This document shows, piece by piece, positions 11,144-63,970 of a DNA stretch of 64,000 nucleotides (positions are counted from its first letter, which is position 1; every line of letters begins with the position of its first letter). The stretch comes from a virus. Taxonomy: Duplodnaviria; Heunggongvirae; Uroviricota; Caudoviricetes. The DNA lies in the IMG/VR virus record IMGVR_UViG_3300048998_000119, positions 13,214 to 77,213 of that record. One strand, given 5' to 3'. The notes beneath the pieces were generated by a model. The model ran no database searches. It was not told the origin of the DNA and worked only from the letters and a program-made list of their open reading frames with translations. Both the position numbers and the translations under genes were made by a program.

Positions 11144-11159
11144 GTTTATCTCGCTTATC

Positions 11160-11290: not shown

Positions 11291-11337
11291 GGGCTCTTAG
11301 GGCTAATTCAACGGGGTCTGGTAAGGGCGAACGATCG

Positions 11338-11400: not shown

Positions 11401-11413
11401 GGAGGGGAGAAGG

Positions 11414-13503: not shown

Positions 13504-13706
13504 GATTGGTTCTCTTTCAGATAGTTGATGATTGTAATAAGACTTGCTATACGAGGTAGATAAGCTGCGTCTTGTTGTGATAACTGTGCAATTAAATACT
13601 GTTCCACAGAGTACTCATACGACTTTATAAGAAAGTTTCTCTGTTTATCGGTCACAGCAATCGACTCACCACTAGGATGATAAAGCCGAACACAAGAATC
13701 AAACAA
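13500..13706 (-). CDS. hypothetical protein (68 aa)
   Basis: ORF track. Confidence 0.35.
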   Translation of the reverse strand: MFDSCVRLYHPSGESIAVTDKQRNFLIKSYEYSVEQYLIAQLSQQDAAYLPRIASLITIINYLKENQS

Positions 13707-13752
13707 CCCATCGGCGGTGGAATGGGTGGTTCGTCGTTCAGATAGAAATCCA

Positions 13753-13986
13753 TCAGTATTCCTTTTGTGGGTACTTGCTGCGTTTCTGTAGATCGAGTTC
13801 CAGACTATTCAAGTCACTGAGCTTGGAGACGTACTTGCTTTGATTGACGGCGTAAATACCATGCGTCCTATTGAGCTTCTCCAGCCACGCAAGATTGAAA
13901 GCACGTTCTTCTTTCTTATACTGCTCGTATTCTTTCTTTGTGGGAAAGTGTAAAGCGAGTCCGTCGCTTCCGTGCACACTATGCAT
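13753..13986 (-). CDS. hypothetical protein (77 aa)
   Basis: ORF track. Confidence 0.35.
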   Translation of the reverse strand: MHSVHGSDGLALHFPTKKEYEQYKKEERAFNLAWLEKLNRTHGIYAVNQSKYVSKLSDLNSLELDLQKRSKYPQKEY

Positions 13987-14203
13987 GTGAACGACTCACG
14001 ATGATGAGCAACAGAATGATGATTATCACGGCGAAACAACCCATTTTAAATACCCTTCGAGCGTTTAGACTGCTGCAATGCATCTGAATGCTTCACAATA
14101 TCGAGGTGCATAAGCTTTCGTATATGGTCAACTATTTTGTCTTGCCCCTTAATCTTGGCGTCCATCATTGTTTCAAGTCTATCCAACTCCCGCAACGTGA
14201 GCA

Positions 14204-16156
14204 TCAGAACTGAATCACATAAGGACGACCGTCGACCTTGACCTTCACCTGCTCAGGCTTGGTGCTGGAGAAGCCCACACCCGACAGCTGTTCTTTCTGA
14301 TGCGGAGCACGCGACCGTGAGCCGAGAACCTCAAACACCTTGCGATGCTCGTTGAGTTCGGCCTTCAGGTACTCATTGTGAATACCCCGAACAGACTCAG
14401 GATTCTCCATTTCCTTCACAAAGAAGAAGACGTGGAGATTGCCCGTGCCTTCACCCCAGTAGTTCGGGCTGAGTGTGATCGCGTCGAGCTCCCGGTATTG
14501 GCCCAACTGGACGCCCCACTTGTCGACCTTGCGTCCACCCACCTGGACCGAGTTGTCGCCCGCTCCGTATTGGACGATCTGTCCGTTTGTAACTCGGAAG
14601 CTGGCGGTCGCGACCACCTCGTTGTGGCGCACCTCACGCGGGCAGTTGAACTTCAGCAGCGTGTCACCACACTCGACTTCAACCTCGAAGCCCACGTCTT
14701 TAACTTCACGGTGTGTGAAGTTGTGAACGCCCACACGATACTCACCGTCCAGCAACTTGCTGAAGTAGACGTTCTCCACGGCGTCTCGACGATCGCCGCT
14801 GACGTTCATGTCCACGTCGAGCTGACCGTATGAACCGATCGGCTTCTTCGCGGCGAAGTGGATCTTGATACCCTTGCTGTCCCAGACATGAAGATCAAGA
14901 TCGTCTGTGTTGAACCAGCTCAGACTGATGCGAAGCGGAGCGTCCACCTTGCCGCCCGCCTGCTTGACACGTTCTTTCACGCTGTCCGTGACGTCGCCGT
15001 CGTAGGACCAGGAGAAAGGATTGTCCCACTTGAAGATAGACGAGCCGGTGGTGAGCGTCATGAAGTTGCCCGGATGCTCGATCAGCAACTCCACCTTCTT
15101 CGCGCCAGGAAGAATGGTCTTCAGGAAGCTGTCGGCGTCGATCGTCTCACCGTCCTTCGAAGGCTTCTTCTTGTTGAACGCCACGCCCGCCATGAGCAAC
15201 TCCAGCGGGGAGTTGATGCGATCGTTGTTGGCGACGAACAACAGATGCTCCATTGGAATGTCGTCAATTGTGGCCATGCGACGCGTGACGTCCATACCCA
15301 TTTCCTCGATCTTGGCGAGCGCCGCGTCGATCTGCTTCTGCGACACCAACGACTTGGGCTTCTTGTAGTTGTTTGGATCCAACATACGACCGAACGCCTC
15401 AGCCGCCTCGTCTGGGTCACGCTTCATGGACTTGTTGTTCGGATCGTTCCATTCAGCTAATTCAATCAAGAACGTGCCGATGCTGACATTGCGTAGACCC
15501 GCCACACGTGTCTTCAAGTGCTTCCACACGAACGTGTCGGATCCATCATACTGACGCGCCAGATCCAAGAAGCCGGACACCTGAGCACGGAACTCGGCGC
15601 CGCGATACAGACGGTTCTCGTCGATCATTTCCAGTGCCTGTTGTAAGACAGCCGGAGTGAACTGGTCCAGACCGCGCTTGAACACACCGAACAGATTGTT
15701 CAGGTCGCCGCGTTCCTTCGATGGCTGAGACACCCTGTGCTTGACGACACGACCGAAGAAGTGATCGTACTTGATCGTGGGATCCTCCTTGTCGCGATTG
15801 GGGCCGGAACCGTAGCTCGCCTGATCGGTACGATACACGCCGGTGATTGGAGCCTGGCGCACTAGATCGCGAAGAGCGGTCGCCACGATGTTGTACGGCA
15901 TAGGCAAGTTCACGTCGTCCCACACGGTGTCGCCGTCGATTGTGCGCAGACGCCCGATATTGCGGATGAAGTTCTTGCAGCAGTTGCAGTTGTGCCAGGT
16001 GTTGACACGGTGGATCGGATCGGTGCCGATCGGGAAGGCGCTGAGATACTTATCCCAGATGTCGTCCACGTCAACCGTGTAGAGTTCCTGTGAGGACATC
16101 GCGTCCCACTTTGAGGCGACGCTCTTCGAGAAAGTTTGAAATGCTGTCATGGTCAC
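14204..16156 (-). CDS. large hypothetical protein (650 aa) with N-terminal Cys cluster HNCNCC
   Basis: long uninterrupted ORF; no recognisable family. Confidence 0.55.
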   Translation of the reverse strand: MTMTAFQTFSKSVASKWDAMSSQELYTVDVDDIWDKYLSAFPIGTDPIHRVNTWHNCNCCKNFIRNIGRLRTIDGDTVWDDVNLPMPYNIVATALRDLVRQAPITGVYRTDQASYGSGPNRDKEDPTIKYDHFFGRVVKHRVSQPSKERGDLNNLFGVFKRGLDQFTPAVLQQALEMIDENRLYRGAEFRAQVSGFLDLARQYDGSDTFVWKHLKTRVAGLRNVSIGTFLIELAEWNDPNNKSMKRDPDEAAEAFGRMLDPNNYKKPKSLVSQKQIDAALAKIEEMGMDVTRRMATIDDIPMEHLLFVANNDRINSPLELLMAGVAFNKKKPSKDGETIDADSFLKTILPGAKKVELLIEHPGNFMTLTTGSSIFKWDNPFSWSYDGDVTDSVKERVKQAGGKVDAPLRISLSWFNTDDLDLHVWDSKGIKIHFAAKKPIGSYGQLDVDMNVSGDRRDAVENVYFSKLLDGEYRVGVHNFTHREVKDVGFEVEVECGDTLLKFNCPREVRHNEVVATASFRVTNGQIVQYGAGDNSVQVGGRKVDKWGVQLGQYRELDAITLSPNYWGEGTGNLHVFFFVKEMENPESVRGIHNEYLKAELNEHRKVFEVLGSRSRAPHQKEQLSGVGFSSTKPEQVKVKVDGRPYVIQF

Positions 16157-18682: not shown

Positions 18683-19113
18683 GAGAACACCTCTTTAAGA
18701 AGCGCGCCGATGTTGTCGTGGATGTAAATCCAGAAGATAACTCCCGCGATCTCGTGAGGTATGCCCCACTCACCCAAGTTTTCCGCGTCGAGTCGTTCTT
18801 CGACGAGCTTGTCCATCTTCTTGTCGAGCAGGACCGCCTGCGTGTGGGTCAGCTGCGGAAAAAGCTCCCGCATGCGTGTGACACGTTTCTCGATTCCCGC
18901 GACGTCCGGATCAATACTTGGCATCGCGAATCCTCCGAGCAATCTCTCTGAACGACTCACGGTCATCGTTGCGGCTGGCGAGGTAATCAGCTTCTTCTTG
19001 ACTAATCTTGAAAAAGTCACGCACGGCTTGAGGCGGCATCGCGTAATTGTGTTTGTTATACATATAACGTCGTTCTTGATCGGCGTGCCAACCTTCAGGT
19101 TGGAAAAGGTCAC
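18679..19113 (-). CDS. hypothetical protein (144 aa; possibly MazG-like helical fold)
   Basis: ORF track; weak EIAGVIFWIYIHDNIG similarity only. Confidence 0.3.
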   Translation of the reverse strand: MTFSNLKVGTPIKNDVICITNTITRCRLKPCVTFSRLVKKKLITSPAATMTVSRSERLLGGFAMPSIDPDVAGIEKRVTRMRELFPQLTHTQAVLLDKKMDKLVEERLDAENLGEWGIPHEIAGVIFWIYIHDNIGALLKEVFS

Positions 19114-19237
19114 AAGCCACCCCCAGGCAACAGAAGCCCTCTTCTGTCCTCAGCGAGCCTTGTGCCTGCTTGTACTCACCTGACTCAAGGGCGCTCGCCC
19201 ACGCCTCTCTCCTCTCGGAGAAGCTTCCATTCAGCAT
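18911..19237 (-). CDS. ALRSGEYKQ/CCLGV family small protein, paralog C (start trimmed)
   Basis: WASALESGEYKQ, FCCLGVACDL, FREIARRIR. Confidence 0.45.
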   Translation of the reverse strand: MLNGSFSERREAWASALESGEYKQAQGSLRTEEGFCCLGVACDLFQPEGWHADQERRYMYNKHNYAMPPQAVRDFFKISQEEADYLASRNDDRESFREIARRIRDAKY

Positions 19238-19685
19238 AGACGTTGATAAATTCTTTTCTACGACTTTGGGCGTAGCGGACGGTCGCGCCGGTGCCGCTGT
19301 GAGAGTAGCCATTAAAGTTGACCAGAAGCTTTTGAGAGTCATCGACTATAGCCTTATTTCTGAGGAGTGTAAGTTTGTCGTCGTACTTCTCGCCAAACAC
19401 ACGTTCGACTTCGGCGTGGTCGCGCAGAGACGCCCAACGGAACCTGCTCTGCTTCGGCCAAGCATTTGCCTGATCCTCGTAGGGAATGTAGCAACCATAA
19501 GGTATACCCAACTCCCAGCAAGCTGTGGCGCACGCCTGATCCCAGCCCAACGCCATTCCTTGAATAACCGCCTTGGGTGTAATTTCTTTCAGATGAATCT
19601 TAGCCACCTCCACCAGAAGCTGGAAGGCCTCTTCCGAGTAACCTCCCAGATCCGGTGGACGATGACCGCTTACGCCCAGAATCAT
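19185..19685 (-). CDS. YpsA-like SLOG domain protein (DUF1273-like)
   Basis: N-terminus MILGVSGHRPPDLGGY...QGMALGWDQACATACWELGIPYGCYIPYE resembles YpsA/DUF1273. Confidence 0.5.
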   Translation of the reverse strand: MILGVSGHRPPDLGGYSEEAFQLLVEVAKIHLKEITPKAVIQGMALGWDQACATACWELGIPYGCYIPYEDQANAWPKQSRFRWASLRDHAEVERVFGEKYDDKLTLLRNKAIVDDSQKLLVNFNGYSHSGTGATVRYAQSRRKEFINVYAEWKLLREERGVGERP

Positions 19686-23171: not shown

Positions 23172-23468
23172 TCACAGCTTCTCGTCGATCCAATCAGCGA
23201 TTTCGGCGAAAGTTTTACCTTGAGCGTCATTCATATTGACGCAGGTGTTGACGGCCGAACCTTCTAATTCAGCCGGACCGTAAACATCAGTGTGAACATA
23301 CGTGCCGCTTCTGTCGGTGAACACACTTGGTTCCACAATTTCGGCCAAAACACCGAGACAGCAATGACTGACCGGAGAGTCGGTGATGTTTCGCAGCATG
23401 AACTTCGTTTGTGTGTACTCACCTGAACGGAGTGCGGCCGTCCACTTTTCTTTGATTTCTTTGTTCAT
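23172..23468 (-). CDS. ALRSGEYTQ/CCLGVL family small protein, paralog D
   Basis: WTAALRSGEYTQ, HCCLGVLAEIVEP, FAEIADWIDE. Confidence 0.5.
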   Translation of the reverse strand: MNKEIKEKWTAALRSGEYTQTKFMLRNITDSPVSHCCLGVLAEIVEPSVFTDRSGTYVHTDVYGPAELEGSAVNTCVNMNDAQGKTFAEIADWIDEKL

Positions 23469-42582: not shown

Positions 42583-42600
42583 TTCTCCTTTTGAGGTTCT

Positions 42601-42632
42601 CTCATATAAGATACCTCTTTTTCCGCGTTTTC
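42601..42632 (-). promoter_or_regulatory. conserved 32-nt element copy 1 (minus-strand sense GAAAACGCGGAAAAAGAGGTATCTTATATGAG)
   Basis: near-identical copies at 44270-44300 and 50721-50752. Confidence 0.6.
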
Positions 42633-42859
42633 TTTCGGTGGTTTCGGCGCATACCGCTTACGCCACCGATAGGACGACTGCTGAGAATTATTGGACAAAG
42701 CTGCTGGTGGGCTTGCGACCCAGCAACGTGTCGGCCTCGTTCTGCACCTTGACGGTGTTGTAGAGTTTACCGGCAGCGTTGGCGTGTGCATCCAACATCT
42801 TCACGTCGATTTTACCCAAGTCAAGATCCTGCATACGCTCCGCCAAGAACGCGGCGACA

Positions 42860-44256: not shown

Positions 44257-44269
44257 GATGGAGTCCTTT

Positions 44270-44300
44270 CCATATAAGATACCATTATTTCCGCGTTATC
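44270..44300 (-). promoter_or_regulatory. conserved 32-nt element copy 2
   Basis: GATAACGCGGAAATAATGGTATCTTATATGGAAAG immediately 5' of the SPFH gene. Confidence 0.6.
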
Positions 44301-44604
44301 AATGATCGTAATAACCACGAGCACGTCGTCGGGCAGCTTCCAGAATTCGCTCGGCGCCCGCTTCACCCATAGCCGCATACTCATAGAGTGTCGGTTGAAT
44401 GCCGTTACTGTGAGCAGACAGCTGACTCACCGTGCCGCTGGGCTTGATGGTCTTGACGCGACCTTTGTTACAGATGGTTTGAAAGACTTTCTTCCAACCC
44501 ATTCCGTAACTGAGGCCGAACGCCATATTCTTGGCCACCTTGTCGCCACCGAAGAGGACCAAGGTGAGCGCGGCCAATTTCCAGAAGAAATTCTTCATGC
44601 TCAT
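44299..44604 (-). CDS. hypothetical membrane-associated protein (101 aa)
   Basis: ORF track. Confidence 0.35.
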   Translation of the reverse strand: MSMKNFFWKLAALTLVLFGGDKVAKNMAFGLSYGMGWKKVFQTICNKGRVKTIKPSGTVSQLSAHSNGIQPTLYEYAAMGEAGAERILEAARRRARGYYDH

Positions 44605-47168: not shown

Positions 47169-47552
47169 CTAATCCTTTTTAAAATGTTTCTGAATACGGT
47201 CGCAGAGTTCAAGTGTCATTCTGTCGTCCTGAGTCGTCACAATCTCGGGTCGACTTTTCTTCAGCTGACGGCTGAGCCATTTATCTTCGGCGATTGATGT
47301 CTCTAATGTTCGATACTGATCAAGATAAACTGAACTCACTTTGCTGTCGCGAGTCAGTTGTATTCTGACGCCGGAGTCATGCAAGAGCCACGAATCTGTT
47401 CGTTGCCAGCCGGGACTGAAAAGAAGCTTGCCGATAAGTTCAACACTCTGACGACGGCGCTGTAAGTAGCCCCCATTTATCAAGAAAGGAGAGCCAAAAC
47501 AGATGGTGAGGCCGGTGGCTACTACCACCAGGAAGAATATAAAGTCAAACAT
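47169..47552 (-). CDS. membrane protein (127 aa)
   Basis: N-terminal TM helix. Confidence 0.4.
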   Translation of the reverse strand: MFDFIFFLVVVATGLTICFGSPFLINGGYLQRRRQSVELIGKLLFSPGWQRTDSWLLHDSGVRIQLTRDSKVSSVYLDQYRTLETSIAEDKWLSRQLKKSRPEIVTTQDDRMTLELCDRIQKHFKKD

Positions 47553-47937
47553 CGGTCATCTTACTCCGCAAGAGTTTTGCGGCGTCGCCCGCCTTGTCGG
47601 GACGCACAATCAAGTGCTTGACGCGACGATATAGCCACTTCTTGTCGCCTTTGGTTAGCTCGATTGCGTAGCCGGGTATATCTACGCCTCTGATCTTTTC
47701 GTAGTCGTAGTCGAGAGCAATCTCGACACCGGTTGCGGTATGCTTCAAGTAGCGGCCTTCCATAAACCAACCATTTATAGCCGCAATCTCACCGATAACC
47801 GCTAACGCGGGATCCTTGCGTTCACCGTAGGAAGCGAAGGGTCGCACGCCGTCGACCATCCACGACAGCAAGACGACCATGAGCACCGCTCCACCGATAC
47901 CGAGTGCGGAAGCGAGAAGAAATTGAATTACAATCAT
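47545..47937 (-). CDS. membrane protein (130 aa)
   Basis: N-terminal TM helix. Confidence 0.4.
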   Translation of the reverse strand: MIVIQFLLASALGIGGAVLMVVLLSWMVDGVRPFASYGERKDPALAVIGEIAAINGWFMEGRYLKHTATGVEIALDYDYEKIRGVDIPGYAIELTKGDKKWLYRRVKHLIVRPDKAGDAAKLLRSKMTDV

Positions 47938-48164
47938 TACAGTACCTCACAAGTTTCGTTGAAGAGCGCTTCGGCGAGATCCAGCTTAGTGCCATGCTTG
48001 ATGAGGTGATCCTCCAGTATAAGCTTTATGTCCAGAATCTGTCGGATGTCTCGGTTTGCTCTGAAAGTGACTTTCTCTCGGTTGAGCCAAACGAAGAAGA
48101 CCAGCGGATGATCGGTGGTGTGAATGCCCGCGAACAACCACTCTTGAATGATACGTTCCGTCAT
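47937..48164 (-). CDS. hypothetical protein (75 aa)
   Basis: ORF track. Confidence 0.35.
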   Translation of the reverse strand: MTERIIQEWLFAGIHTTDHPLVFFVWLNREKVTFRANRDIRQILDIKLILEDHLIKHGTKLDLAEALFNETCEVL

Positions 48165-48742
48165 ATGTTCAACTCCTTGAGCTGCAGGAGACGCTTTACG
48201 ATTTGATCTTCCGTGAAACGATCGTACAGACCGTCCAGAGAAGGAGTCTCACGTCCGTCGCCCGGTTGAAAGGCGCGGGTGCTCGCCCAGGTCGGCAGCT
48301 TGTCGGCGAATTGCGTCAACAGAAGAACGGTGTCCGTGTCGACGACGATGCTGTGGATCTCCGAGGCGTGCTGATGGTACGACTCACCTTCCTTGTGCAG
48401 CATGCTGGACTCGATCGACAGCAGTGTTTCGCGCTTCCAGACGAAACCGGAGCCGCCGTTGAGCGGTGTCTCGTAGTCGAATTCTTGGAAACGCGTGTGG
48501 CGAGGATCACCCCAGCCACTTTTGTATTTGTTGTTGCGAACTTCTCCGGCCAATACCGTGGTGGAAAAATCATAACGATGATCGTGCGGCACGACGATTT
48601 CGGCGTCGGTCTTCAAGTTGTCGAAGAAGTAAGCTTTGATCGTCAGCGTATCCGAACGATGCAGACAGATGTAGTCGAGTCCTTTCGAGTGGAAGTTGCG
48701 GAAGCTGTTGGCGGCGATGGTTTCGACGTCGTCGTATCTCAT
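48161..48742 (-). CDS. putative cupin-fold / 2OG-Fe(II)-oxygenase-like protein
   Basis: VPHDHRYDF (HxD) and HQHASEIHSIV. Confidence 0.35.
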   Translation of the reverse strand: MRYDDVETIAANSFRNFHSKGLDYICLHRSDTLTIKAYFFDNLKTDAEIVVPHDHRYDFSTTVLAGEVRNNKYKSGWGDPRHTRFQEFDYETPLNGGSGFVWKRETLLSIESSMLHKEGESYHQHASEIHSIVVDTDTVLLLTQFADKLPTWASTRAFQPGDGRETPSLDGLYDRFTEDQIVKRLLQLKELNI

Positions 48743-49227
48743 TTGGCGTATCCTTTATAGTGATTGAGAAAGTTTCCGTGAAAACAATTTTCGCTGAACC
48801 CTGACGGAACGCCGTGGTCGAGAAAAAAGTAAATACGTTCGGCCGCACCCTTGGCGGTGTTGTCGAAATGGGACCACATACCGCCGAACATCCACGCGAA
48901 CTCAGATGAAATCGCATCGCTGCCTTCGGAAAAGACTGGACAGAAGTTACGTTCGCAGTAAGCACTCCAGTCTATAGTGCTGCCGGGAAAATCACTGTCG
49001 ACCGCCAGAAAACCAGCGCTGGGACCGTGACCAACTGCGCAGGCGACGGCACCACAGTTGTGCACACCACCGTTCTCGCGAGCGTATTTATTTCTGATCT
49101 CAAACTCTCGTCCCCAGAGACCATCCTCGACCACGCTGAAGTAAGAACTCATATTGAAGCTGTCGTAGTTCTCGGGAAGCTCAAAGAGATAGTCGGCGAG
49201 CGTCTTGAGGTTGCCGCGATTAACCAT
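48739..49227 (-). CDS. tandem paralog 1 of unrecognised family (CGAVACAVGHGPSAGF motif)
   Basis: start trimmed to MVNRGNLKTLADYL; shares three blocks with paralogs 2 and 3. Confidence 0.6.
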   Translation of the reverse strand: MVNRGNLKTLADYLFELPENYDSFNMSSYFSVVEDGLWGREFEIRNKYARENGGVHNCGAVACAVGHGPSAGFLAVDSDFPGSTIDWSAYCERNFCPVFSEGSDAISSEFAWMFGGMWSHFDNTAKGAAERIYFFLDHGVPSGFSENCFHGNFLNHYKGYAK

Positions 49228-49675
49228 TGTAGATCTCCACGAATGCACGATAGGAATAACCCTTGAAGACTTCCGGCACACCGTGCTCGAGATAGTAGTT
49301 GATGCGCTTGGCGGCACCATGAGGTGTGTTGTCGCAGAAAGACCAGAATGAACTGAACATCCACTCGAACTCGCGCGTGTTGTTGCCATCTTCGTCGCGC
49401 ACATCGCAGAAGAGACGATGAGTGTACACATCCCAGTGGACTTCCACGTCGTTGAGTTCATGTTCCTGAAACAAAAAACCCGCCGAAGGACCATGACCCA
49501 CAGCACAGGCCGCAGTTCCACAACGCGAGACTCCACCGTTGTTCAGTGCGTAGTCTCGTTCGTCGGCGGGAGTGTGGGCGTAGAAGAAACCCGCCATGTC
49601 GAATTCGGCGTAGTCTTCCGGCAGCGTGAGCAGGTAGTCGGCGAGCTTCTTGAGGTTGTCGCGGCGGTTCATGCG
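49220..49675 (-). CDS. tandem paralog 2 of unrecognised family
   Basis: start trimmed to MNRRDNLKKLADYL; CGTAACAVGHGPSAGF; HGAAKRINYYLEHGVP. Confidence 0.6.
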   Translation of the reverse strand, partial: RMNRRDNLKKLADYLLTLPEDYAEFDMAGFFYAHTPADERDYALNNGGVSRCGTAACAVGHGPSAGFLFQEHELNDVEVHWDVYTHRLFCDVRDEDGNNTREFEWMFSSFWSFCDNTPHGAAKRINYYLEHGVPEVFKGYSYRAFVEIYNG

Positions 49676-50151
49676 ATGTACTCCTGATAGATGGGGACAT
49701 AATAACGAAAGCTTTTGCAAACGTCGAAACTCTCCGGCACGCCATTTCTCAGATAGTAGTAGATGCGTGCGGCGGCTCCGTGAGGTGTGTTGTCGTAAGG
49801 CGCCCACCTACCGCCAAACATCCAGCTGAAAGCATTGGCAGCTTCTGGGCTGAAGCGACGACCGACGATGAAGTTGGCGTAGGTATATTCCGGCCACATC
49901 ACTCCACCGCCTTCTGAAATGAACTCTTCGGTAAAGAGAATACCGGCGGTAGGTCCGTGACCAACCGCGCAAGCCACGGCTCCGCACGCGCCCACACCGC
50001 CGTTGTGTAGAGCATACTCACGTTCCACTGAGGTGTGAACACCCTCCATGAAAGATATCATGTTGAAATGTTCGTAGTCCAGCGGAAGCGCCGACAGATA
50101 ATCGGCGAGCTTCTTGAGATTTTCACGCTTGTCCATCTTGGAGCCTTTCAT
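49669..50151 (-). CDS. tandem paralog 3 of unrecognised family
   Basis: MDKRENLKKLADYL; CGAVACAVGHGPTAGI; HGAAARIYYYLRNGVP. Confidence 0.6.
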   Translation of the reverse strand: MKGSKMDKRENLKKLADYLSALPLDYEHFNMISFMEGVHTSVEREYALHNGGVGACGAVACAVGHGPTAGILFTEEFISEGGGVMWPEYTYANFIVGRRFSPEAANAFSWMFGGRWAPYDNTPHGAAARIYYYLRNGVPESFDVCKSFRYYVPIYQEYIA

Positions 50152-50395
50152 AGTTGTCGTAGATGTACTCAGCCATTTGCATGAGATTCAGCGCGGACTG
50201 CTTGGTGAGGAAGCGAATGAAACAAAACGGTTCGGCGTTAATCTCGATTGTGTCGGCGTTCTCTTCCGTGATCGGTTCGTCGCCTTTGACGGCGTGGAAT
50301 GTGATGCAGGGAAACTTATCTTCATCCCAGTTGGGCACCATAGCGAAACGACCGGTGCCGATTTCTATTCCAGGAATAACCATCTGAATTTCCAA
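50123..50395 (-). CDS. hypothetical protein (90 aa)
   Basis: ORF track; preceded by stem-loop element. Confidence 0.4.
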   Translation of the reverse strand: MEIQMVIPGIEIGTGRFAMVPNWDEDKFPCITFHAVKGDEPITEENADTIEINAEPFCFIRFLTKQSALNLMQMAEYIYDNYERLQDGQA

Positions 50396-50428
50396 TTTTT
50401 AGGAGGAAGCTTTTTACGGCTTCCTCCA
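50388..50428 (-). promoter_or_regulatory. stem-loop + A-run + RBS module, copy B
   Basis: minus: GGAGGAAGC-cgtaaaaa-GCTTCCTCC TAAAAATTGGAAATTCAG ATG. Confidence 0.4.
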
Positions 50429-50695: not shown

Positions 50696-50720
50696 TATAT
50701 TTCTCCTGAGAGATGATCCT

Positions 50721-50752
50721 CTCATATAAGATACCTTATTTTCCGCGTTTTC
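50721..50752 (-). promoter_or_regulatory. conserved 32-nt element copy 3
   Basis: GAAAACGCGGAAAATAAGGTATCTTATATGAGAG; first intergenic region after the lysis cassette. Confidence 0.6.
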
Positions 50753-50863
50753 TTTTGACGAAAATTTGCAACTTAGGGTTGACGATCAGACGACGTGTGG
50801 CGCGTCTCAGCAAGTGAGAAGACAGTTCATCCGCTTCCAGATGGAGTGCGTCCTCAAGCCGGG

Positions 50864-51172
50864 TCACTTCATCGCGTCCGCGTCTCGTTGCTCACAGCGA
50901 GTTATGATGTCTATGACGTCCGTGGTTCGACCGTTTGACTGGTCAACCTTGTTCGCCTCCGACACACCAAAGTTCACCCAGTTCTTGAGTGAGTCCAGCG
51001 GGTCGGTGACGTCGACGGGAGGCGGTGTGTGGGCCACACCTTTGTGCCAACTGTCAGGGATTAGTTTTGAGCACGCACTCGGGTGACCCACTATAACCGG
51101 CGAGTGCGCACAGCCCGCTGCGGCCAGCAGTGTTGACGCCGTGAGCGTCCTTAGCAGATTGAACTTGAACAC
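50864..51172 (-). CDS. o-spanin (Rz1-like outer-membrane lipoprotein)
   Basis: lipobox LLAAAGC, Pro-rich TPPPVDV, starts inside the Rz gene in another frame. Confidence 0.5.
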   Translation of the reverse strand: MFKFNLLRTLTASTLLAAAGCAHSPVIVGHPSACSKLIPDSWHKGVAHTPPPVDVTDPLDSLKNWVNFGVSEANKVDQSNGRTTDVIDIITRCEQRDADAMK

Positions 51173-51380
51173 GGGTGGTCTCCACTACTCGATCGCCTTC
51201 AGCGTCGGTTGAAATTCTATTCTGAGTCGTCTCGACGGCGTCTTCGCCGGACAGTATAGCGCCCGTGGCGATGTTGCCGTCCAGATGAGCTTGATCGCTC
51301 TTTGAGCCGCCGCATGTCGCCATCAGAAATATAGCGATGACGGCTATGACCACCATGGCGATTGTGATGTATTTACTCAA
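51054..51380 (-). CDS. i-spanin (Rz-like)
   Basis: N-terminal TM IAMVVIAVIAIFLMA, periplasmic remainder; directly downstream of endolysin. Confidence 0.5.
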   Translation of the reverse strand: MSKYITIAMVVIAVIAIFLMATCGGSKSDQAHLDGNIATGAILSGEDAVETTQNRISTDAEGDRVVETTRVQVQSAKDAHGVNTAGRSGLCALAGYSGSPECVLKTNP

Positions 51381-52069
51381 CGAATTACCTCCAAAGCTTT
51401 CTTGCGCTTGGCTTCTACTTCGGCCAGACCGATGAGGCCACCGTTGATCGAGCGTCGAGCGCCCTTGAGATCAGCCATATCCACATAGTCGAACGTGTGC
51501 TTGCGCAACATGAAGTCACAGGCGGCAACCAGCGACTTGGCCGGATCCGCGACATCGTCTGGATCGAAACCCAGATTCAGTTTGAGAACGAGATACTCAG
51601 CTGCTCCGGTGTGTTGGAGCATTCCTCGACCACGGTTTTCCCAGCCGTGGCCCTGATTTCCCATGCGATTTCCGTATACAAGATTTGCGAGGGCAACATC
51701 CTCCCTATCTGGATCAGTCGGATCCCAAGAATAGGGTGCCGCAGAAGCCAGAGTAGGGAATCTAGTTGGCCAAATTTGTGTGAGACGTTTTGCACTGTAG
51801 TGGAGGTTCTCTTCAAAGCGAGTCCAACCGCCGGACTCATTACTCGTTTCACCGAGGAATTCCGCCAACCGCATAGGGGTGTCGACCTTATACTTGGGGA
51901 ACGAGATTACAGCCTGCGCGCCGATTGCTCGGAGTATCGCGTCGGGTTGACGTCCGGCGACGTAACCGAACAGCATGGCGTAAGTTATCTTACCGGCCAC
52001 ACCGTCGATTGCACCGCAGGGGAATTTTGCGTCAGTCAGATTTTGTTGGGTTTTCGTCCAATTTATCAT
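51377..52069 (-). CDS. endolysin, glycoside hydrolase family 19-like
   Basis: LAEFLGETSNESGG (GH19 catalytic Glu region) and NLVYGNRMGNQGHGWENRGRGMLQHTG. Confidence 0.7.
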   Translation of the reverse strand: MINWTKTQQNLTDAKFPCGAIDGVAGKITYAMLFGYVAGRQPDAILRAIGAQAVISFPKYKVDTPMRLAEFLGETSNESGGWTRFEENLHYSAKRLTQIWPTRFPTLASAAPYSWDPTDPDREDVALANLVYGNRMGNQGHGWENRGRGMLQHTGAAEYLVLKLNLGFDPDDVADPAKSLVAACDFMLRKHTFDYVDMADLKGARRSINGGLIGLAEVEAKRKKALEVIR

Positions 52070-52370
52070 TTTCGGCCTTTGCTTCTCCGGTGACCGGTGG
52101 AACCTTTTCGGCGGTGGCTTTAGCTGCAGCCGCGAGGTCTCGATCAGCCTGATTGGTCTTAAACAATGCCTGAGCCGCCATACCCATAATAGTCATGAGA
52201 CCAGTGACCGTAGAATCAACAATTCTGATCTTTGATTGAGTGACCAGATCATTGAGATTACCGTCGGGGAAGTAACGAACGAGAAGCATGAGTAGGAGGA
52301 TGGAAAGGAGGAGGGTCATAAACGCTATGAACCCTTCATGCTCTTTCCAGGAACTAGAGGGTATTTTCAT
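52032..52370 (-). CDS. putative holin (112 aa)
   Basis: two hydrophobic helices, charged C-terminus, overlaps endolysin start. Confidence 0.45.
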   Translation of the reverse strand: MKIPSSSWKEHEGFIAFMTLLLSILLLMLLVRYFPDGNLNDLVTQSKIRIVDSTVTGLMTIMGMAAQALFKTNQADRDLAAAAKATAEKVPPVTGEAKAENDKLDENPTKSD

Positions 52371-52432: not shown

Positions 52433-52891
52433 TCAACGGGATGGATGATGCCGAGTCGGCCAAACCAAACGACCCGAAGCGACAGGCGTCCAGCCATCTT
52501 TTTCAAGCACTCGCTGGAACACACTCTGGTTATGAAGCGTACTGCTCGTCACCGCGATGTGGAAACCCTTCTTCTCAACCCACTCTCTGAAGTCTCTGTG
52601 GAAGTCACGTAACTCGTGAACAGCCTTGACGCCAGTAATGTTTGAGTGATAATAGATTTGACTGACCGCTCGAATCGGTGAGTGATGATTGCCGTGGCCT
52701 TCTATAGCCATCATCCAACCATGCTCACCGATCTTGAAGTACCGTCTATCCGCGATTGCTTGATTCAGGAAAGCTCTAAAATGAACTCGATCGTGTGGAA
52801 AGAATTCATCGTTGTAGCGTGCGTAGAGATCTTCGGACAGATCACAAATCCATCCGAAGTCTGATCTCTTAGCTTGTCTGTAAGTACCCAT
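52433..52891 (-). CDS. hypothetical protein (152 aa)
   Basis: ORF track. Confidence 0.4.
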   Translation of the reverse strand: MGTYRQAKRSDFGWICDLSEDLYARYNDEFFPHDRVHFRAFLNQAIADRRYFKIGEHGWMMAIEGHGNHHSPIRAVSQIYYHSNITGVKAVHELRDFHRDFREWVEKKGFHIAVTSSTLHNQSVFQRVLEKDGWTPVASGRLVWPTRHHPSR

Positions 52892-55508
52892 CTTGTGTCT
52901 GCGCCAAATAGGGTGCCAGCATCTTCATAGAGGGGCTGTCCACCGGAGCCGAATAGTTGTTGTTGTCTGGATCCAGATGATAGATGTAGCTGAGCGGGAA
53001 GCCCGAACCCCATGTCGTCCAACCAAACAACACATCTTTATGGTCAAGCATATACTGATACATACTTGCCATGATAGGTCCACAGATGGTCTGAGCGGGA
53101 TCGCCTCCCGCCGTCTCACCGATGAAACCTCGTTTGTTGTGGGCGGTCAACCAATCCACGAACTGGCTGATTCTGCCGGAGCCTGTTCCGGACACACAGA
53201 AAGCTGAAGTACCGGAACCGTCGCTGTCGTTATAGCTGTGGCAGTGGTAAACTTCATTGTTGGCCGGATCATAGCTGGTGATGTTGGCGTCGCCGTTGCC
53301 GTTCTTGATGAACGAACCCGCCGAAGCGTACTCAGACATTTCACGATGGATTAGACCGGTGAAGTTAGTCTGAGCGCGAATGGCGTTCATCACTGCTTGA
53401 TTTATGTCTCGGGCCCAACCGGCGCCCAAGGAGTTGTTCACATCCTTCGGCTCGTTCATGAGATCAAAGTGAACACGAGGGTTGCCTTGAAACACCAGCG
53501 CGAGTTTCACCCAGACATCGATTAGATGCATGGTATTCAGTTCCGCGCCGTTGTAACGAACAGTGACGCCTCGACCATAATACTTATTGTCTGTTGAGTT
53601 GAAATACGGCTCGATGTTGTACTCCATGAAGTTATGCATATCCAGCAGAATATATCCGCCGAGGACGTTAGTCCAATAATTGATAACTTCAATGATTCGC
53701 CGCATATCCTGGTCATTGCTACCGGTGAACGGTACGTCGGGTCCGTAATAGAGTGGTCCCATAAGAACAGGTTGAATACGTTCCCAACGAATTGGAAGAC
53801 GTGCATAGCGTACGCCCTTGGACCAGTAGTAGTCCATTCGCTCATGCTGATAGCCCACACCGTTTTCCGGCTTGGACGGGTAGTAATAACGACCGCCGTT
53901 GTACGCGTACTTCTTGCCTGTGGTTGGATCGAAGATTGCGCCGAACTCACCGCCTGAGATATTCAAACCGTAAAGATTCTTGGGACAAGGTGGTTTAATC
54001 AAACCCGACAAGTAGACACAACTGTCCGGTATCACAAGTGGATCGAGATCCGGATCCGTGAGCCGCATAGTGTGCTTGCCCGTACCCGCGTGAGGAACCG
54101 TAAAGGTCACAGCACCCTGTGCCAAGGCTGTGTTCGTCGTCGTCAGCCTCGTGCCGTTTAAGGACATAAAGCCGCTCGCCGCCAAAGCTGCCTGCAGCGC
54201 CGAGTCGAACCCTGGGGGTGAGTTGACCGACGCCAGCGTCACGCTGCTGGGATTGTCGTTGGCCGGACCTTGTAAGGTGTAGGTGATGGTCGTACCGTCC
54301 GAGGTGGCCCGCAGTTCCCAGAACCGAGGAGGAAGATCGGCGAAGATACGCGTCTGCGAACCTCCGTTCATGGCGACCGGCGTGTATTGCCTCCACCAGT
54401 TGTTACGATAGGTCGTGCCGTCTGAGGGTGGCGGATTGGCGGAAGACTTCGTGACTAGATCATAGATAAACTTTTGTCCCGTCGGAACATAGATTACCCA
54501 GTCACCTTTCTTGTAGATGGTGGTGTTGTTCCAGTTGCCCTGATACGACACTGTGGCATCTTCAAAGCCGACAGCCACATCGCCCTCGATTGAAACGTTG
54601 GTAATACAATCCCACTGCATCGGGAGAGGTTCCGCCACACCGTCTTGTTTGACGGTCAACAGTATGCTCATTGGTTTGGTGGGATCGTAGCCCTTGCCCC
54701 ACGTCACATAACCACCGTTGAACCACTGTCCGGCCGTCGCTTCAGTCCATTGTGGAATTTCCACAGTGCAACCGGCCTCAAGTGCGGCTTTACGCAACTG
54801 TGTTCGGAAGTCCGGATCCAACTGCTTCTGACCGACGTTCGCTTCGTAGATTTTACAGCGATGTCCCTCAATCAGATTTGTCGTGTAGTAAGTAACTCTG
54901 AAGGAATCTCCTTCCTTCAGCTGCGCCGACACCGCTCCGTGATCCACACTCTCACAGTAGATATTCATGGCGGGAACGCCGGTGGGTCTCCGCGATGTGT
55001 CACGTACGTAAATGTAGCTACCAGAACCTGGAGCGATGTCGCCGTTGCCATAACCCTTCAGCAAGATCTGAAGATCACGTCCCACAGTTTTATCCGGAAA
55101 AGTGGTGTTCTGATCGTCCGAACGGTTACGTCTCACCGTGTTGGTGAACGTCATCACGTCGAAGCCTTTATAACTCGGCGTCGTCCTGATGGCGAACGAC
55201 ATAGTGCCGGACACAGCTGGCGTAGTGGTGCTGGACAGACGCTGGCTTGTACAACCGTGCTTGGCACACTCCGCCGCCACAATACCGTCCCAGTCTTGAA
55301 CGTAGGCGCCGTTGCCGCCGATATTGCCGGGTCCAGTAAACCAGACCACAATCATTTCATCGCCGTTGCCGGATGGATTGAAACAAGCCAACGTCCAAGT
55401 AATGTCGTCTCCTTCGCTTATATAACGTTCATTCAAATGGAGTTTCTGCCACGCAGGTTTAAGTGCGTAAAACGGAAACTCCATCGACGTATTAAACGGA
55501 GTAATCAT
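52869..55508 (-). CDS. tail fibre/spike with C-terminal GH5-like glycosidase domain
   Basis: 879 aa; C-terminal HFDLMNEPKD and GFIGETAGG paralleling the GH5 motifs of the 1590..2825 gene. Confidence 0.65.
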   Translation of the reverse strand: MITPFNTSMEFPFYALKPAWQKLHLNERYISEGDDITWTLACFNPSGNGDEMIVVWFTGPGNIGGNGAYVQDWDGIVAAECAKHGCTSQRLSSTTTPAVSGTMSFAIRTTPSYKGFDVMTFTNTVRRNRSDDQNTTFPDKTVGRDLQILLKGYGNGDIAPGSGSYIYVRDTSRRPTGVPAMNIYCESVDHGAVSAQLKEGDSFRVTYYTTNLIEGHRCKIYEANVGQKQLDPDFRTQLRKAALEAGCTVEIPQWTEATAGQWFNGGYVTWGKGYDPTKPMSILLTVKQDGVAEPLPMQWDCITNVSIEGDVAVGFEDATVSYQGNWNNTTIYKKGDWVIYVPTGQKFIYDLVTKSSANPPPSDGTTYRNNWWRQYTPVAMNGGSQTRIFADLPPRFWELRATSDGTTITYTLQGPANDNPSSVTLASVNSPPGFDSALQAALAASGFMSLNGTRLTTTNTALAQGAVTFTVPHAGTGKHTMRLTDPDLDPLVIPDSCVYLSGLIKPPCPKNLYGLNISGGEFGAIFDPTTGKKYAYNGGRYYYPSKPENGVGYQHERMDYYWSKGVRYARLPIRWERIQPVLMGPLYYGPDVPFTGSNDQDMRRIIEVINYWTNVLGGYILLDMHNFMEYNIEPYFNSTDNKYYGRGVTVRYNGAELNTMHLIDVWVKLALVFQGNPRVHFDLMNEPKDVNNSLGAGWARDINQAVMNAIRAQTNFTGLIHREMSEYASAGSFIKNGNGDANITSYDPANNEVYHCHSYNDSDGSGTSAFCVSGTGSGRISQFVDWLTAHNKRGFIGETAGGDPAQTICGPIMASMYQYMLDHKDVLFGWTTWGSGFPLSYIYHLDPDNNNYSAPVDSPSMKMLAPYLAQTQDGYLQTS

Positions 55509-60591: not shown

Positions 60592-61184
60592 TATACATTC
60601 TCGATTATTTTCACGACGCCGTTGTCCATCAAGATGGCGTCTTCATAAACCATTCCCTGCACCGTGTCTGTGTCGTACAGACAATCCATGATGACATCAT
60701 CCTGGAAAGTGAAGGTGGTGGCGTTCTGAGGGATACGAAGCTGTGGGTAGATACCCAACGGCCCCGTACCGGTCAGAGTAGTTGTGGTCATGTAGATCTT
60801 CGAGTGATTCGAAAATCTGATGAAGGTGCCCGTGGGGATAATTCCCACGTTATTGGCTACCGTCACCTGTGTGGCTCCAAGCGAGCCTGTGCAAGTCGGA
60901 GTGGAGGTGGACGTCTTCGCTTGCTTCGCGCCCTGATTCTGGGGAACGATGATCTGGAAGACGTCCGTATTTCCTTTCACAATCATGTGCGTCATCACGA
61001 TGTGAGCGCCCGTACGCTTGGGGTCGAAGCGAGCTTCAAGTTCCCAACGCTGCGAAGAGCGCTTCATCACGTTACGCTTCAGAGAAGCAGAGTCGTTGGC
61101 GAACACCGGCTTATTGGTCCGCAGCGTGAGTGGAACCACAAACTCGGCAATCACTACGCCATTGTCCAAAAGACCGTATGCCAT
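60591..61184 (-). CDS. minor tail protein (197 aa)
   Basis: position directly after tape measure. Confidence 0.45.
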   Translation of the reverse strand: MAYGLLDNGVVIAEFVVPLTLRTNKPVFANDSASLKRNVMKRSSQRWELEARFDPKRTGAHIVMTHMIVKGNTDVFQIIVPQNQGAKQAKTSTSTPTCTGSLGATQVTVANNVGIIPTGTFIRFSNHSKIYMTTTTLTGTGPLGIYPQLRIPQNATTFTFQDDVIMDCLYDTDTVQGMVYEDAILMDNGVVKIIENV

Positions 61185-63970
61185 TACCTAATACCTTTTT
61201 CTCGATTATGAGCGTTCACGCCCCGAGTGATCTCTGGGATCATTTCGAAGATAGTGCGCTTAGTCTGGCGGCTGATGTCGCCTGTGATCGGAATGTTGAT
61301 AGTCTGAGACGTCTTGCTGTTGTCGGTGGTGGGCATAGACTTGTCGATTGCTTGAGTGGCCATACCGATGTCGACACCCGCTCCAACCAAGCCACCGTCG
61401 GCGTACTTCGGGACTTGATCGTTGTTGATCGCCGTCAGCAAACCACGATGTTTCCCAACCTGTTTCGCCTTGACGACGAACTCACCGTTGGACAGCATAG
61501 CAGGAATGGAGTCAGACGTACTGGTGCCTGGGCCCTTGACGTGACCGCCGTCTGCGAACAGATTGCCGATCAACATACCCAAAAGACTACCAGCTGTGGC
61601 TGCGGCACCAATCATACCACCGCCTCCACCACCACCTGCAGAGGTCACAGACTTGAGCGAGTCGCCCATAGTCTTACCCATGTCGGGAGCGATTTTCAGC
61701 AGAGGATTGGCGATGTCGCCGCCGATGTCCGGAGCCTTGCTCGTGAGCACAGACGCGATTGCGCCGCCCGGACTGTCCTTCTTCTTGCCGCCGAACAACT
61801 TACCGAGGCCTCCGAAGAGACCACCGCCCGACGCCTTATCGTTGGCCGGAGCGGCCATTGACGTCATCTGAGACAGCATACCGGAGACCGGGATCTTGTC
61901 GGAATTCATGTCGATGGACTTGGGATCCAACAGACCGGCCACATCAGGTGTGTACGTAGATGCAATGTCGCTGACGCTCTTACCCTTGTCGAGCAAGCCG
62001 CCGAGACCGCCGCCCGCTTTAGCCGTGGAACCACCAATCAGATCAAAGATACCACCCATCTTGGAACCCTGGCCGAACAGTTTGTCGGTCAACGAACCGG
62101 TGAAGCCATCGATAATCTTATTGGTGAACGTGGAGGCGATGTCCATGAGATTGAACTTGCCGGTTTTGATGAACTTGCTGATGCCTTCGGAGAAGCTACT
62201 CTTCATTGTGTTGGTGAAGTCTTCGCCCGCCTGCTTGGCCTTATCTTCAGGTTTGTCCAGCAATCGTCCGAGAATCTTGTGATTCGCGTCAATCTTCTGC
62301 TGAGCCGCCTGACGACCTTGTTCATCCAAACCACCGTCAATTTGCTCCTGCAGATTCTTAATGTTCTGCATGATACCAACAATCTGCGCCTGGGCCTTGC
62401 TGGACAGACGATTGAAAGCACTCTTGTCGACCTGATCGCCGGTTTCACTCGCCAAAGCGGTGACCCGTGCATAAACAGAACGATAGATGCTCTGATTTTC
62501 GTTGATGGCACTAGTCAAGTCCGCCGTGGCATTGGTCATGCTAGTGCGGATTTCGCGACTGTTGATCGGATTGTCTTCGAGCTGTTTAGCCCAAGCTTCC
62601 ATCTTGGTCAGATAATCCTGCACCTGCTTAACCGTGTCCGGCGTCAGCATCTGATACTCTTCTTTGGTGATGTTCAGACCCATAGGTTCCAAACTACCAG
62701 CCATAGCGTCGTATGAGTTGCGACCTGCGTTGACCTTACTGGTGATGTCGGGAGTCATGGTCGCAATTTTAGACTGCTGATCGGCGACGAATTCCGCCAC
62801 ACCCGGAGTGTTGGCCGCTACGTCGTTTGCACCCTTCAGCTTACGCTTAATGGGAACAATCGAGTTGAGGATTTCCGCACGCGTTGATGCAGCCATCTTC
62901 AAGTACTCTTTCATCGTCAGACGAAGTTTCGGGAACATTTCATTGATGATGTCGAGTTCATCGCTGAACTTAATGTCGGGATCGGTCTCGGTGGTCGTGG
63001 TCTTCGGACCCTTTGTTTTGTCGTCTGCCTTAGGATTGGCGCCGGACAACGCAGAGGTTTGAGCCACAGCAGAGAAGTTACGCAGGTCCTGCATGTCGGC
63101 GATTTGCTTATCGATATTGGCGATAATACGACCACCGGCCCACTTCATCACGCCGCTGCTGACCTTAGCCGTGTTGGCTGCAGTCTCAGCACGTGTGGCT
63201 TGCAGCTGAGCGATCCTGACGTCGATTGGGTTTACGTCTACGCCCACGCTGATATTGACGGCGTCGGGAGCTTTGTAATCGACCTTGGCCTTAGTCTTAG
63301 CCTTAGATGCCCGAGTGTGCGTCTTCACACCACCCATGTTACGATCGATCTGATGCTGAATGGCCATGCCACCGTCCGCGAAGGCCGGGAGAGGCTGTCC
63401 GCCGTTGATGGCTTCCAGAAGATCTTTGTGGCGTGCGGTCGAAGCCGCGTTCACCACGTACTCACCGTTGGACAACCAAGCAAGAACGTCGTCACTCTTA
63501 CCCGTACCCGGACCGGAGATTGGACCGCCAGTGGCGTGTGATTGGATTATGTCACCATTCTCATCACGCTTTGTTCCAAACATCCAATCGCCGATACGGT
63601 CAGCAACAGAAACAGTCTTCTTAGGAATATTTCCGTTTCGCTGATCTTCAACTTTGATGTTTGGATCGTAGTTGGGAAGCCCCTTCTTGCCCGGCAAAGC
63701 CTTAGGCATCAAACTCTTCAGCAATTGAACATAGGCGTTTTGATGTGCAAGGGCTAGTTTGAAATAAGGTACCTGTGGCAGAGTGACGAAATCACCATGC
63801 ACGTTATCGAGCCAAGAGTATTTGTATTGCTGCATAGAAGCGTATTTAGCTTCTTTAGTGCGCGCATGAAACTCTAGTTCTTTCTCTTGCAAATTTTCAA
63901 AGTCACTAGTGTATAACTTCTTGGCGGCCACCACATCAGGACGTTTATTGATGGCGTCGATGGTGTTCAT
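61184..63970 (-). CDS. tail tape-measure protein
   Basis: 928 aa; repeated TMP signature GGPISGPGTGKSDDVLAWLSNGEYVV / GHVKGPGTSTSDSIPAMLSNGEFVV; Ala/Gln-rich helical middle; Gly-rich stretch. Confidence 0.7.
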   Translation of the reverse strand: MNTIDAINKRPDVVAAKKLYTSDFENLQEKELEFHARTKEAKYASMQQYKYSWLDNVHGDFVTLPQVPYFKLALAHQNAYVQLLKSLMPKALPGKKGLPNYDPNIKVEDQRNGNIPKKTVSVADRIGDWMFGTKRDENGDIIQSHATGGPISGPGTGKSDDVLAWLSNGEYVVNAASTARHKDLLEAINGGQPLPAFADGGMAIQHQIDRNMGGVKTHTRASKAKTKAKVDYKAPDAVNISVGVDVNPIDVRIAQLQATRAETAANTAKVSSGVMKWAGGRIIANIDKQIADMQDLRNFSAVAQTSALSGANPKADDKTKGPKTTTTETDPDIKFSDELDIINEMFPKLRLTMKEYLKMAASTRAEILNSIVPIKRKLKGANDVAANTPGVAEFVADQQSKIATMTPDITSKVNAGRNSYDAMAGSLEPMGLNITKEEYQMLTPDTVKQVQDYLTKMEAWAKQLEDNPINSREIRTSMTNATADLTSAINENQSIYRSVYARVTALASETGDQVDKSAFNRLSSKAQAQIVGIMQNIKNLQEQIDGGLDEQGRQAAQQKIDANHKILGRLLDKPEDKAKQAGEDFTNTMKSSFSEGISKFIKTGKFNLMDIASTFTNKIIDGFTGSLTDKLFGQGSKMGGIFDLIGGSTAKAGGGLGGLLDKGKSVSDIASTYTPDVAGLLDPKSIDMNSDKIPVSGMLSQMTSMAAPANDKASGGGLFGGLGKLFGGKKKDSPGGAIASVLTSKAPDIGGDIANPLLKIAPDMGKTMGDSLKSVTSAGGGGGGGMIGAAATAGSLLGMLIGNLFADGGHVKGPGTSTSDSIPAMLSNGEFVVKAKQVGKHRGLLTAINNDQVPKYADGGLVGAGVDIGMATQAIDKSMPTTDNSKTSQTINIPITGDISRQTKRTIFEMIPEITRGVNAHNREKGIR

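Follow-up and report, generated by a model that had tools for sequence, protein, structure and literature searches.

Three consecutive paralogs in a Caudoviricetes genome segment belong to an uncharacterised family of phage proteins with a conserved Cys/His motif and hypervariable segments

The 64,000-nucleotide (nt) stretch of Caudoviricetes DNA analyzed here, to which we refer as the window (positions 13,214 to 77,213 of IMG/VR record IMGVR_UViG_3300048998_000119), carries three consecutive minus-strand genes, A, B and C, whose small products share conserved motifs and are otherwise strongly diverged. The question raised by this locus is what purpose several divergent copies of one protein might serve in a phage. 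We found that all three belong to a large and essentially viral family, in which three blocks are under strong purifying selection, and we tentatively favor the idea that its members are scaffolds presenting variable loops to host proteins. The three genes are as follows:

49669..50136, minus strand: paralog A, start at 50136, 155 amino acids (aa), from open reading frame (ORF) and start-codon analysis; database protein P0001
49220..49672, minus strand: paralog B, start at 49672, 150 aa, from ORF and start-codon analysis
48739..49227, minus strand: paralog C, start at 49227, 162 aa, with a 7-aa insertion in hypervariable segment 1

The starts were chosen by their match to homologs and their better upstream context, and when genes were called independently on the source contig, the lengths were the same (155, 150 and 162 aa). 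With an alternative ATG at 50151, A would have 160 aa, but the 155-aa form is favored both by the alignments with homologs and by that separate call. An earlier interpretation of this locus, made from the letters and translations and referred to here as the sequence-only reading, had put the lengths at 152–163 aa; the actual range is 150–162 aa. The junction between A and B is an ATGA overlap, in which the ATG of B lies on the stop codon of A; B and C overlap by 8 nt, and C joins the gene that follows it (48161..48742) through a further ATGA overlap. Because of the ATGA and 8-nt overlaps, A, B and C are almost certainly co-transcribed and translationally coupled.

Comparison of the three proteins confirmed that they are paralogs, as the sequence-only reading had claimed. 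B and C are 51% and 44% identical to A, respectively, with 56 invariant columns in a MAFFT alignment of the three, and BLASTP gave expectation values (E) far beyond chance (3e-39 between A and C, 1e-41 between B and C). At the DNA level, too, the paralogy leaves a trace, namely three repeat families (D1–D3) with a spacing of ~464 nt. The three motif blocks quoted in that reading are present in all copies and were not lost in the alignment. Its description of the locus as a tandem triplication with diversification fared less evenly: the diversification fits the hypervariable, shuffled segments described below, and a recent, local event was ruled out by neighbor-joining bootstraps, in which A, B and C were monophyletic in 0 of 100, together with saturation of their synonymous sites (proportion of synonymous differences, pS, 0.55–0.80). 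Each copy is also 56–58% identical to proteins from other contigs, vs. 45–52% to its two neighbors. Since their synonymous sites are saturated, their closer relatives lie on other contigs and they never form a group of their own, we regard the trio as old, diverged duplicates.

We then considered how far the family extends. A profile of the three copies retrieved 599 proteins from a word-indexed database, and when a profile of 120 sequences was searched exhaustively with HMMER, the yield was 2,742 clusters (at 50% identity) at E ≤ 1e-3, or 1,808 at E ≤ 1e-10, with no characterized relative among them; the named members are all annotated “hypothetical protein.” A, B and C match the family profile with E values of 5e-57, 9e-57 and 2e-53 over hidden Markov model (HMM) positions 9–160 and contain all three blocks, and are thus full-length members. 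Scans of the three against Pfam, NCBIfam and PADLOC gave no match (none in Pfam at E ≤ 1), and 120 relatives gave no credible match to Pfam, the best being noise (DUF5049, E 0.007, in 3 of the 120). Among the PHROGs, A and B matched none, and C reached phrog_889 below threshold (E 0.089), in a match extending from the N-terminal helix to the Cys motif; this family, of unknown function, was matched at E ≤ 0.01 by 14 of the 120 relatives (best 9.9e-7). Judging by these matches, we take the link to PHROG 889 to be remote and the window proteins not to be members. A search from a distant, compact-branch member returned 32 matches, none of them named and none with a Pfam domain, and literature searches on DUF6197 (a family discussed below), phrog_889, OLIVR5 and anti-defense tandem paralogs turned up no functional data, including none on any member of the family studied here.

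Members of the family are almost wholly phage or metagenomic in origin. Pattern-limited scans of sequence collections found 47 viral contigs and only five loci in 185,579 genomes (one per bacterial species), and the two Sphingopyxis loci examined among those five are prophage-like. About 10 of 50,697 cultured-phage records contain a member: these come from 150-kb myoviruses of Agrobacterium, Rhizobium and Ochrobactrum, two Alishewanella phages and one T4-like cyanophage, and include Agrobacterium phage OLIVR5 (with two members, gp147 and gp149), Rhizobium phages IC12, IG49 and LG08, and Synechococcus phage BUCT-ZZ01. A megablast of the 7-kb region against the same 50,697 records found no match.

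What all of these proteins have in common is a framework of three constrained blocks: an N-terminal helix (NL.KLA.YL..LP.DY..F.M), a Gly/Ala-rich loop (C-G-x-x-A-C-A-x-G-H-G-P-x-A-G) and a third block reading W.F...W...DNT..GAA.RI. The second of these translates exactly as CG(A/T)(V/A)ACAVGHGP(T/S)AG in A, B and C, at the following positions:

49942..49986, minus strand: Cys/His motif of A, CGAVACAVGHGPTAG (C-x4-C-x3-H), from translation; variable segments lie on either side
49478..49522, minus strand: Cys/His motif of B, CGTAACAVGHGPSAG, from translation and family conservation
49012..49056, minus strand: Cys/His motif of C, CGAVACAVGHGPSAG, from translation and family conservation

Counted over 187–190 family domains, both Cys of the C-x4-C and the Gly that follows were found in 187 of 187 each, the His in 184 of 187, the Phe and Met of Phe-x-Met in 181 of 181 and 182 of 182, the Asp in 186 of 189 and the Arg of G-A-A-x-R-I in 190 of 190, with two Trp and one Phe also invariant or nearly so. 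A C-x4-C-x3-H arrangement in a Gly/Ala-rich loop recalls helical zinc modules, and together with the invariant Asp it may constitute a structural, zinc-type metal site (Cys51, Cys56, His60 and Asp115 in A); the Asp, capping the last core helix, suggests itself as the candidate fourth ligand. The proteins are ~125–180 aa long and acidic (pI 4.9–5.5, net charge −5 to −11), and aromatic residues make up 13.5–17% of them. No signal peptide or membrane helix was found in the members checked, and we describe the family as cytoplasmic.

To these features a predicted structure can be added. The AlphaFold2 model of A, computed from the 120-sequence alignment, has a predicted local distance difference test score (pLDDT) of 92.4 and a predicted template modeling score (pTM) of 0.89, and consists of seven helices with a few short strands; it is least confident (76–86) at residues 31–60. 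Foldseek found no neighbor of this model among 350,542 PDB chains (best E 2.8) and none in BFVD, where the best match (E 0.05) was an uncharacterized Pseudomonas phage protein, and a sequence-profile search of the PDB with the family returned noise only. Because the model is confident and lacks a PDB neighbor, we consider the fold a candidate new fold. Neither sequence nor fold similarity was detected to solved anti-defense proteins (the DNA mimics Ocr and ArdA, anti-CRISPRs, Tad and Acb sponges, Gad and others). We also considered a Cys-His-Asp hydrolase of the papain-like, NlpC/P60 or transglutaminase-like kind; such enzymes have an alpha+beta fold in which the Cys begins a helix and the His sits far away, on a beta-strand, and this arrangement was not found. 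From the library, PDB and BFVD searches together, the sequence-only reading was right to call the family unrecognized, and the structural comparison that it had recommended returned no confident match.

That reading had also pointed to copy number in other phages as informative, and an HMM scan of all fetched loci showed that it ranges from 1 to 7:

Most loci: 1 copy
Nine distinct loci, including that of OLIVR5: 2 copies
L061: 3 copies, interspersed
Sphingopyxis prophage-like loci L002, L007 and L016: 1 copy, a fused double and 1 further copy
L018: 6 copies, in tandem
L021: 7 copies, in tandem

The copies in L021 are up to 75% identical among themselves, vs. 58–60% to outsiders. In both large arrays (L021 and L018), the copies are near-identical in the N-terminal block, in the Cys/His loop and in the W.F..W..DNT..GAA.RI block, and hypervariable on either side of the Cys/His loop (in one segment before it and in those that follow it) and in the C-terminal tail. 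Among the copies, the variable cassettes recur in differing combinations, and this indicates recombination or gene conversion. By the Nei-Gojobori method, the proportion of nonsynonymous differences (pN) in the conserved blocks of the arrays was 0.03–0.23 vs. a pS of 0.37–0.69, with the Cys/His motif block at 0.03–0.10, and in the variable segments it was 0.38–0.56, about equal to pS. Natural double-domain fusions also exist (P0096, P0121, P0131, P0133 and P0205). Among 10 longer members (245–328 aa), no Pfam domain was found in the extensions, and four are simply two family domains. The N-terminal domain of the fusions is degenerate, having lost several conserved residues while retaining the two Cys, the His and the Asp. 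The AlphaFold2 model of the fusion P0096 (261 residues) has a pTM of 0.77, higher than would be expected of independent domains, which hints, and is suggestive only, that family domains may pack together.

These patterns bear on several explanations. The notion that these duplicates lack a function or are decaying, and have persisted by chance, draws on nothing more specific than the fact that orphan genes are generally abundant in phages, and is hardly conceivable: all three ORFs in the window are intact and carry every invariant residue, the same motifs are kept in thousands of homologs, and a pN far below pS in the conserved blocks is purifying selection that effectively refutes decay. The main rival, though one we consider doubtful, is that the proteins are enzymes in which Cys, Cys, His, Asp and Arg form an active site, thiol-based or metal-dependent, acting on a host protein, a nucleotide or a small molecule, with the loops setting specificity and the paralogs differing in substrate. 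The invariance of the polar residues and the strong purifying selection on the motif block would suit an enzyme, as would a conserved loop framed by variable segments, an arrangement known from enzymes with variable specificity loops. On the other hand, the Cys and His lie only 4–9 residues apart in a Gly/Ala-rich loop, unlike in papain-like and other Cys-His-Asp hydrolases, and some members have Trp or Thr in place of the His. Pseudo-enzymes, moreover, usually lose their catalytic residues, whereas the degenerate fusion domains keep the Cys, Cys, His and Asp and lose other conserved residues; because of this, a structural site fits better than a catalytic one.

The composition of the proteins invites another explanation, namely that they act as a sponge or sensor, an aromatic/Arg/Asp pocket sequestering a host signal or metabolite, for example an immune second messenger, with different paralogs covering different ligands. 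The richness in aromatic residues and the invariant W, W, F, Y, R and D are in line with such a pocket, the proteins are small, soluble and acidic and are encoded in an accessory-gene region, and one homolog (in L001) lies near NAD-salvage genes, which may be coincidence. We nevertheless give this explanation little credence, as the ligands of sponges are invariant, and hypervariable surface loops and arrays of 6–7 copies would be atypical.

The explanation we tentatively prefer is that the family provides a conserved, probably metal-stabilized helical scaffold, an accessory and probably early protein of many unrelated phages, whose loops would attach to host proteins that themselves vary, for example components of defense systems, and would probably inhibit them. 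The core of this scaffold would be mostly helical, held together by the three constrained blocks and stabilized by a metal at the Cys/Cys/His/Asp site, and the surfaces on display would be the hypervariable segments that flank the Cys/His loop, a third segment in the middle of the protein and the C-terminal tail. We infer that these loops would engage and probably inhibit variable host factors, in defense or in other processes, early in infection, and that several co-translated copies or fused doubles would widen the range of targets or act as hetero-oligomers; the copies may work together, in view of their translational coupling and of the fusions that occur in nature. It is from the pattern of conservation and variation only that an anti-defense or inhibitor role is suggested.

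Several points weigh against this proposal. Nothing in this analysis tied the family to any defense system or host target; no conserved partner gene was found beside it across 59 loci, and no fusion to an informative domain among the ten longer members. The invariant C, C, H, D and R set is equally compatible with an enzyme, polar residues kept over thousands of sequences also being what an active site looks like, and for a metal ligand it is awkward that the His has become Trp or Thr in a few divergent members. The substitution ratios given above, and the median nonsynonymous rate (dN) of 0.68 vs. a median synonymous rate (dS) of 0.31 in the mid segment of the L021 copies, are only suggestive, because of saturation and because the variable segments are poorly alignable. 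Family orthologs in two Sphingopyxis prophages are only modestly more diverged (57–71%) than neighboring genes (49–88%), and the timing of expression is judged from gene order only.

The surroundings of the trio speak to that timing. Along the minus strand, the order begins with the tape measure and tail proteins, continues with a tail protein that has a GH5 cellulase domain and with the lysis cassette, and then enters a series of ~25 small genes that includes A, B and C. A dNMP (deoxynucleoside monophosphate) phosphatase follows, and then a T7-like single-subunit RNA polymerase (40596-38305; phrog_414, E 1e-118), a DNA polymerase, an exonuclease, a primase-helicase and a ribonucleotide reductase, with the terminase and portal further along the strand. 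The RNA polymerase, the long tape measure (at 61184-63970) and a distal tail protein point to a siphovirus-like phage with its own RNA polymerase, on a contig of ~77 kb. The features nearest to the trio are:

50864-52370, minus strand: lysis cassette, immediately upstream of the small-gene block
52032-52370, minus strand: holin-like membrane protein
51377-52069, minus strand: endolysin (phrog_181)
51054-51380, minus strand: spanin-like gene with a membrane helix, overlapping a second spanin-like gene
50864-51172, minus strand: spanin-like gene with a lipobox-like LLAAAGC
50719..50755, minus strand: promoter-like element, copy 1, core AACGCGGAAA..GGTATCTTATATG, from repeat family D9 and alignment
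50123..50383, minus strand: small upstream gene, 86 aa, sharing 14 nt with the start of A; assigned to no family
48161..48742, minus strand: downstream gene, 193 aa, PHROG 8313 (function unknown; E 1e-58), coupled to C, part of the same tight gene string and not a family member
44267-44303, minus strand: promoter-like element, copy 2, same core
42599-42635, minus strand: promoter-like element, copy 3, same core

The promoter-like element is intergenic and ~30 nt long and occurs exactly three times, always among the small genes that precede the RNA polymerase gene, with a 13-mer that is exact in the three copies and an AGGAGAAAT ribosome-binding site ~25 nt downstream of each. Copy 1 lies ~570 nt upstream of A and probably starts the transcription unit that holds A, B and C. 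The three elements are probably repeated early promoters, and their layout also recalls the promoters of single-subunit RNA polymerases; a consensus scan for sigma-70 promoters and terminators around the cluster gave nothing above shuffled expectation. In T7, gene 1 comes after the early genes and a set of repeated early promoters, and because a small-gene block with repeated elements likewise precedes the RNA polymerase here, the “early-like” position that the sequence-only reading gave the trio appears plausible, behind an element and between the lysis cassette and the polymerase, though the timing itself is read from this layout.

The same position could mean that the genes serve the phage's own program, as regulators of the phage or host RNA polymerase or as accessory factors in replication or assembly, in which case they would be subfunctionalized housekeeping paralogs and not arms-race genes. 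The RNA polymerase and replication genes follow them in a single co-directional string, the copies are old and stably maintained, and translational coupling implies a fixed stoichiometry. We find this rather improbable, given how patchily the family is spread across unrelated phages (siphovirus-like with a T7-type polymerase, 150-kb Pootjesviridae, a T4-like cyanophage, contigs of 83 kb and of 130–180 kb, and prophages) and given that 1–7 copies among non-conserved neighbors is the behavior of accessory and not of core genes.

Some further observations concern the neighborhood. A perfect 9-bp hairpin, GGAGGAAGC-N8-GCTTCCTCC, lies at ~50403-50428 on the minus strand, between the ORF that ends at 50436 and the one that starts at 50383; no U-tract follows it, and a regulatory or RNA-processing structure is possible. 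The 193-aa PHROG 8313 protein has His-rich motifs (PHDH..., HQH..EIHS) with the look of a metal-binding, cupin-type site; it had no Pfam match and no PDB sequence match, and its gene was not found beside family members in other loci. Just downstream, 47545-47937 and 47169-47552 (minus strand) form a tandem pair of ~130-aa proteins with an N-terminal membrane helix and 30% identity (E 2e-7), which match no known family and might be exclusion or otherwise membrane-acting proteins. An antisense ORF at 49418-49687 (plus strand), with equivalents in 26 loci, was rejected as a gene and attributed to the shadow of the conserved coding strand.

Elsewhere in the window, an 84-nt internal repeat in the tape-measure gene (D7; 61466-61549 and 63446-63529, 70% identity) indicates a duplicated domain. 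The 879-aa tail-region protein at 52869-55508 (minus strand), which contains the GH5 cellulase domain (Pfam E 4e-29), resembles in its C-terminal part a 411-aa protein at 1590-2825 (minus strand; 26% identity, E 4e-14), and may be a polysaccharide depolymerase or receptor-binding module. A separate family of four ~100-aa paralogs with 35–41% identity, two of them adjacent, is encoded on the minus strand (12181-12486, 12483-12815, 18911-19342 and 23172-23468) and is also seen as DNA repeats D8, D11 and D20. Outside the window, the 164-kb phage contig L001, which has one family member, carries an NAD-salvage type module (10189-14831) 2–7 kb downstream of it, comprising a radical-SAM protein, a CTP-transferase/NUDIX protein and NAMPT/NAPRTase, and, 6–8 kb upstream, two proteins with ADP-ribosyltransferase-toxin domains.

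If the scaffold explanation is true, a family of at least 2,700 clusters, currently invisible to Pfam and to structure-based annotation, would become a new and easily recognized marker of phage counter-defense or host-takeover loci, and its invariant core with shuffled loops in arrays of 1–7 copies would be a natural experiment in the diversification of binding specificity. Should the family instead turn out to be an accessory protein of the usual kind, annotation would still gain a clean definition of it.

Among catalogued families, PHROG 889 is the only one with a detectable sequence relation and is similar in length (profile length 162); it differs in that A and B do not match it and C does so below significance, and, being without annotation, it adds no function. 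Helical zinc modules offer a structural likeness: TAZ-type HCCC sites and CCCH fingers have C-x4-C and C-x3-H spacings, and their ligand spacing in an interhelical loop resembles that of the family, although there is no fold match to any of them and the fourth ligand here is only a candidate, the Asp. AhpD-like and carboxymuconolactone-decarboxylase-like proteins (C-x-x-C-x3-H) are likewise small and helical and, as in the family, have a Cys pair with a His three residues after the second Cys.

Arrays of other small Cys-motif proteins accompany the family in its accessory regions. Among the sampled loci, DUF6197 co-occurred in eight, a “PCIIG” type in 12 and a “C.YR..G.KCA.G” type in six:

L030, 497-4620: array of DUF6197 (PF19698), 9 tandem copies
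L024, 7112-8667, and L027, 7050-8943: arrays of the “C.YR..G.KCA.G...LQ..HD” family, 5-6 copies
“PCIIG...LQ..FD” family: 1-3 copies

Further loci with small Cys-motif arrays are L018, L019, L021 and L037. All three types have the general plan of the family studied here: a helix at the N-terminus, a C..G motif that contains Cys, a variable middle part, and an (N/F/H)D motif plus a C-terminal helix, and DUF6197 is likewise uncharacterized. A single superfamily uniting them was rejected on hhalign probabilities of 0.1–0.7% (0.1% for DUF6197), and because hhalign gives no support for homology we treat the shared layout as co-occurrence and not kinship. A, B, C and the 120 relatives did not match the DUF6197 model (gathering score 24.6 bits), which true DUF6197 neighbors match at 47–59 bits. 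A bolder form of the scaffold explanation, which we think unlikely as it stands, would join these observations: an undescribed fold with a metal-stabilized knuckle displaying two or three hypervariable loops, encoded in arrays of up to seven copies, with loop cassettes shuffled by recombination and copies sometimes fused, would form a modular, self-diversifying repertoire of inhibitors of host proteins or defenses, with the DUF6197- and “PCIIG”-type arrays as parallel repertoires in the same part of the genome. Such a repertoire would be comparable in its logic to variable immune-evasion gene arrays.

Parallels in overall behavior are found in the amplified accessory families of viruses, such as anti-CRISPR and anti-defense clusters and the “gene accordion” of poxviruses. 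The family differs from anti-CRISPR and anti-defense clusters in that host targeting is only suggested here, by pattern, and in having no similarity to solved anti-defense proteins, and its core motifs are conserved far more strongly than those of typical anti-CRISPR families. As in these accessory families, however, copy number is variable, expansions are lineage-specific, and hypervariable segments are set on a conserved frame within an accessory or early gene block.

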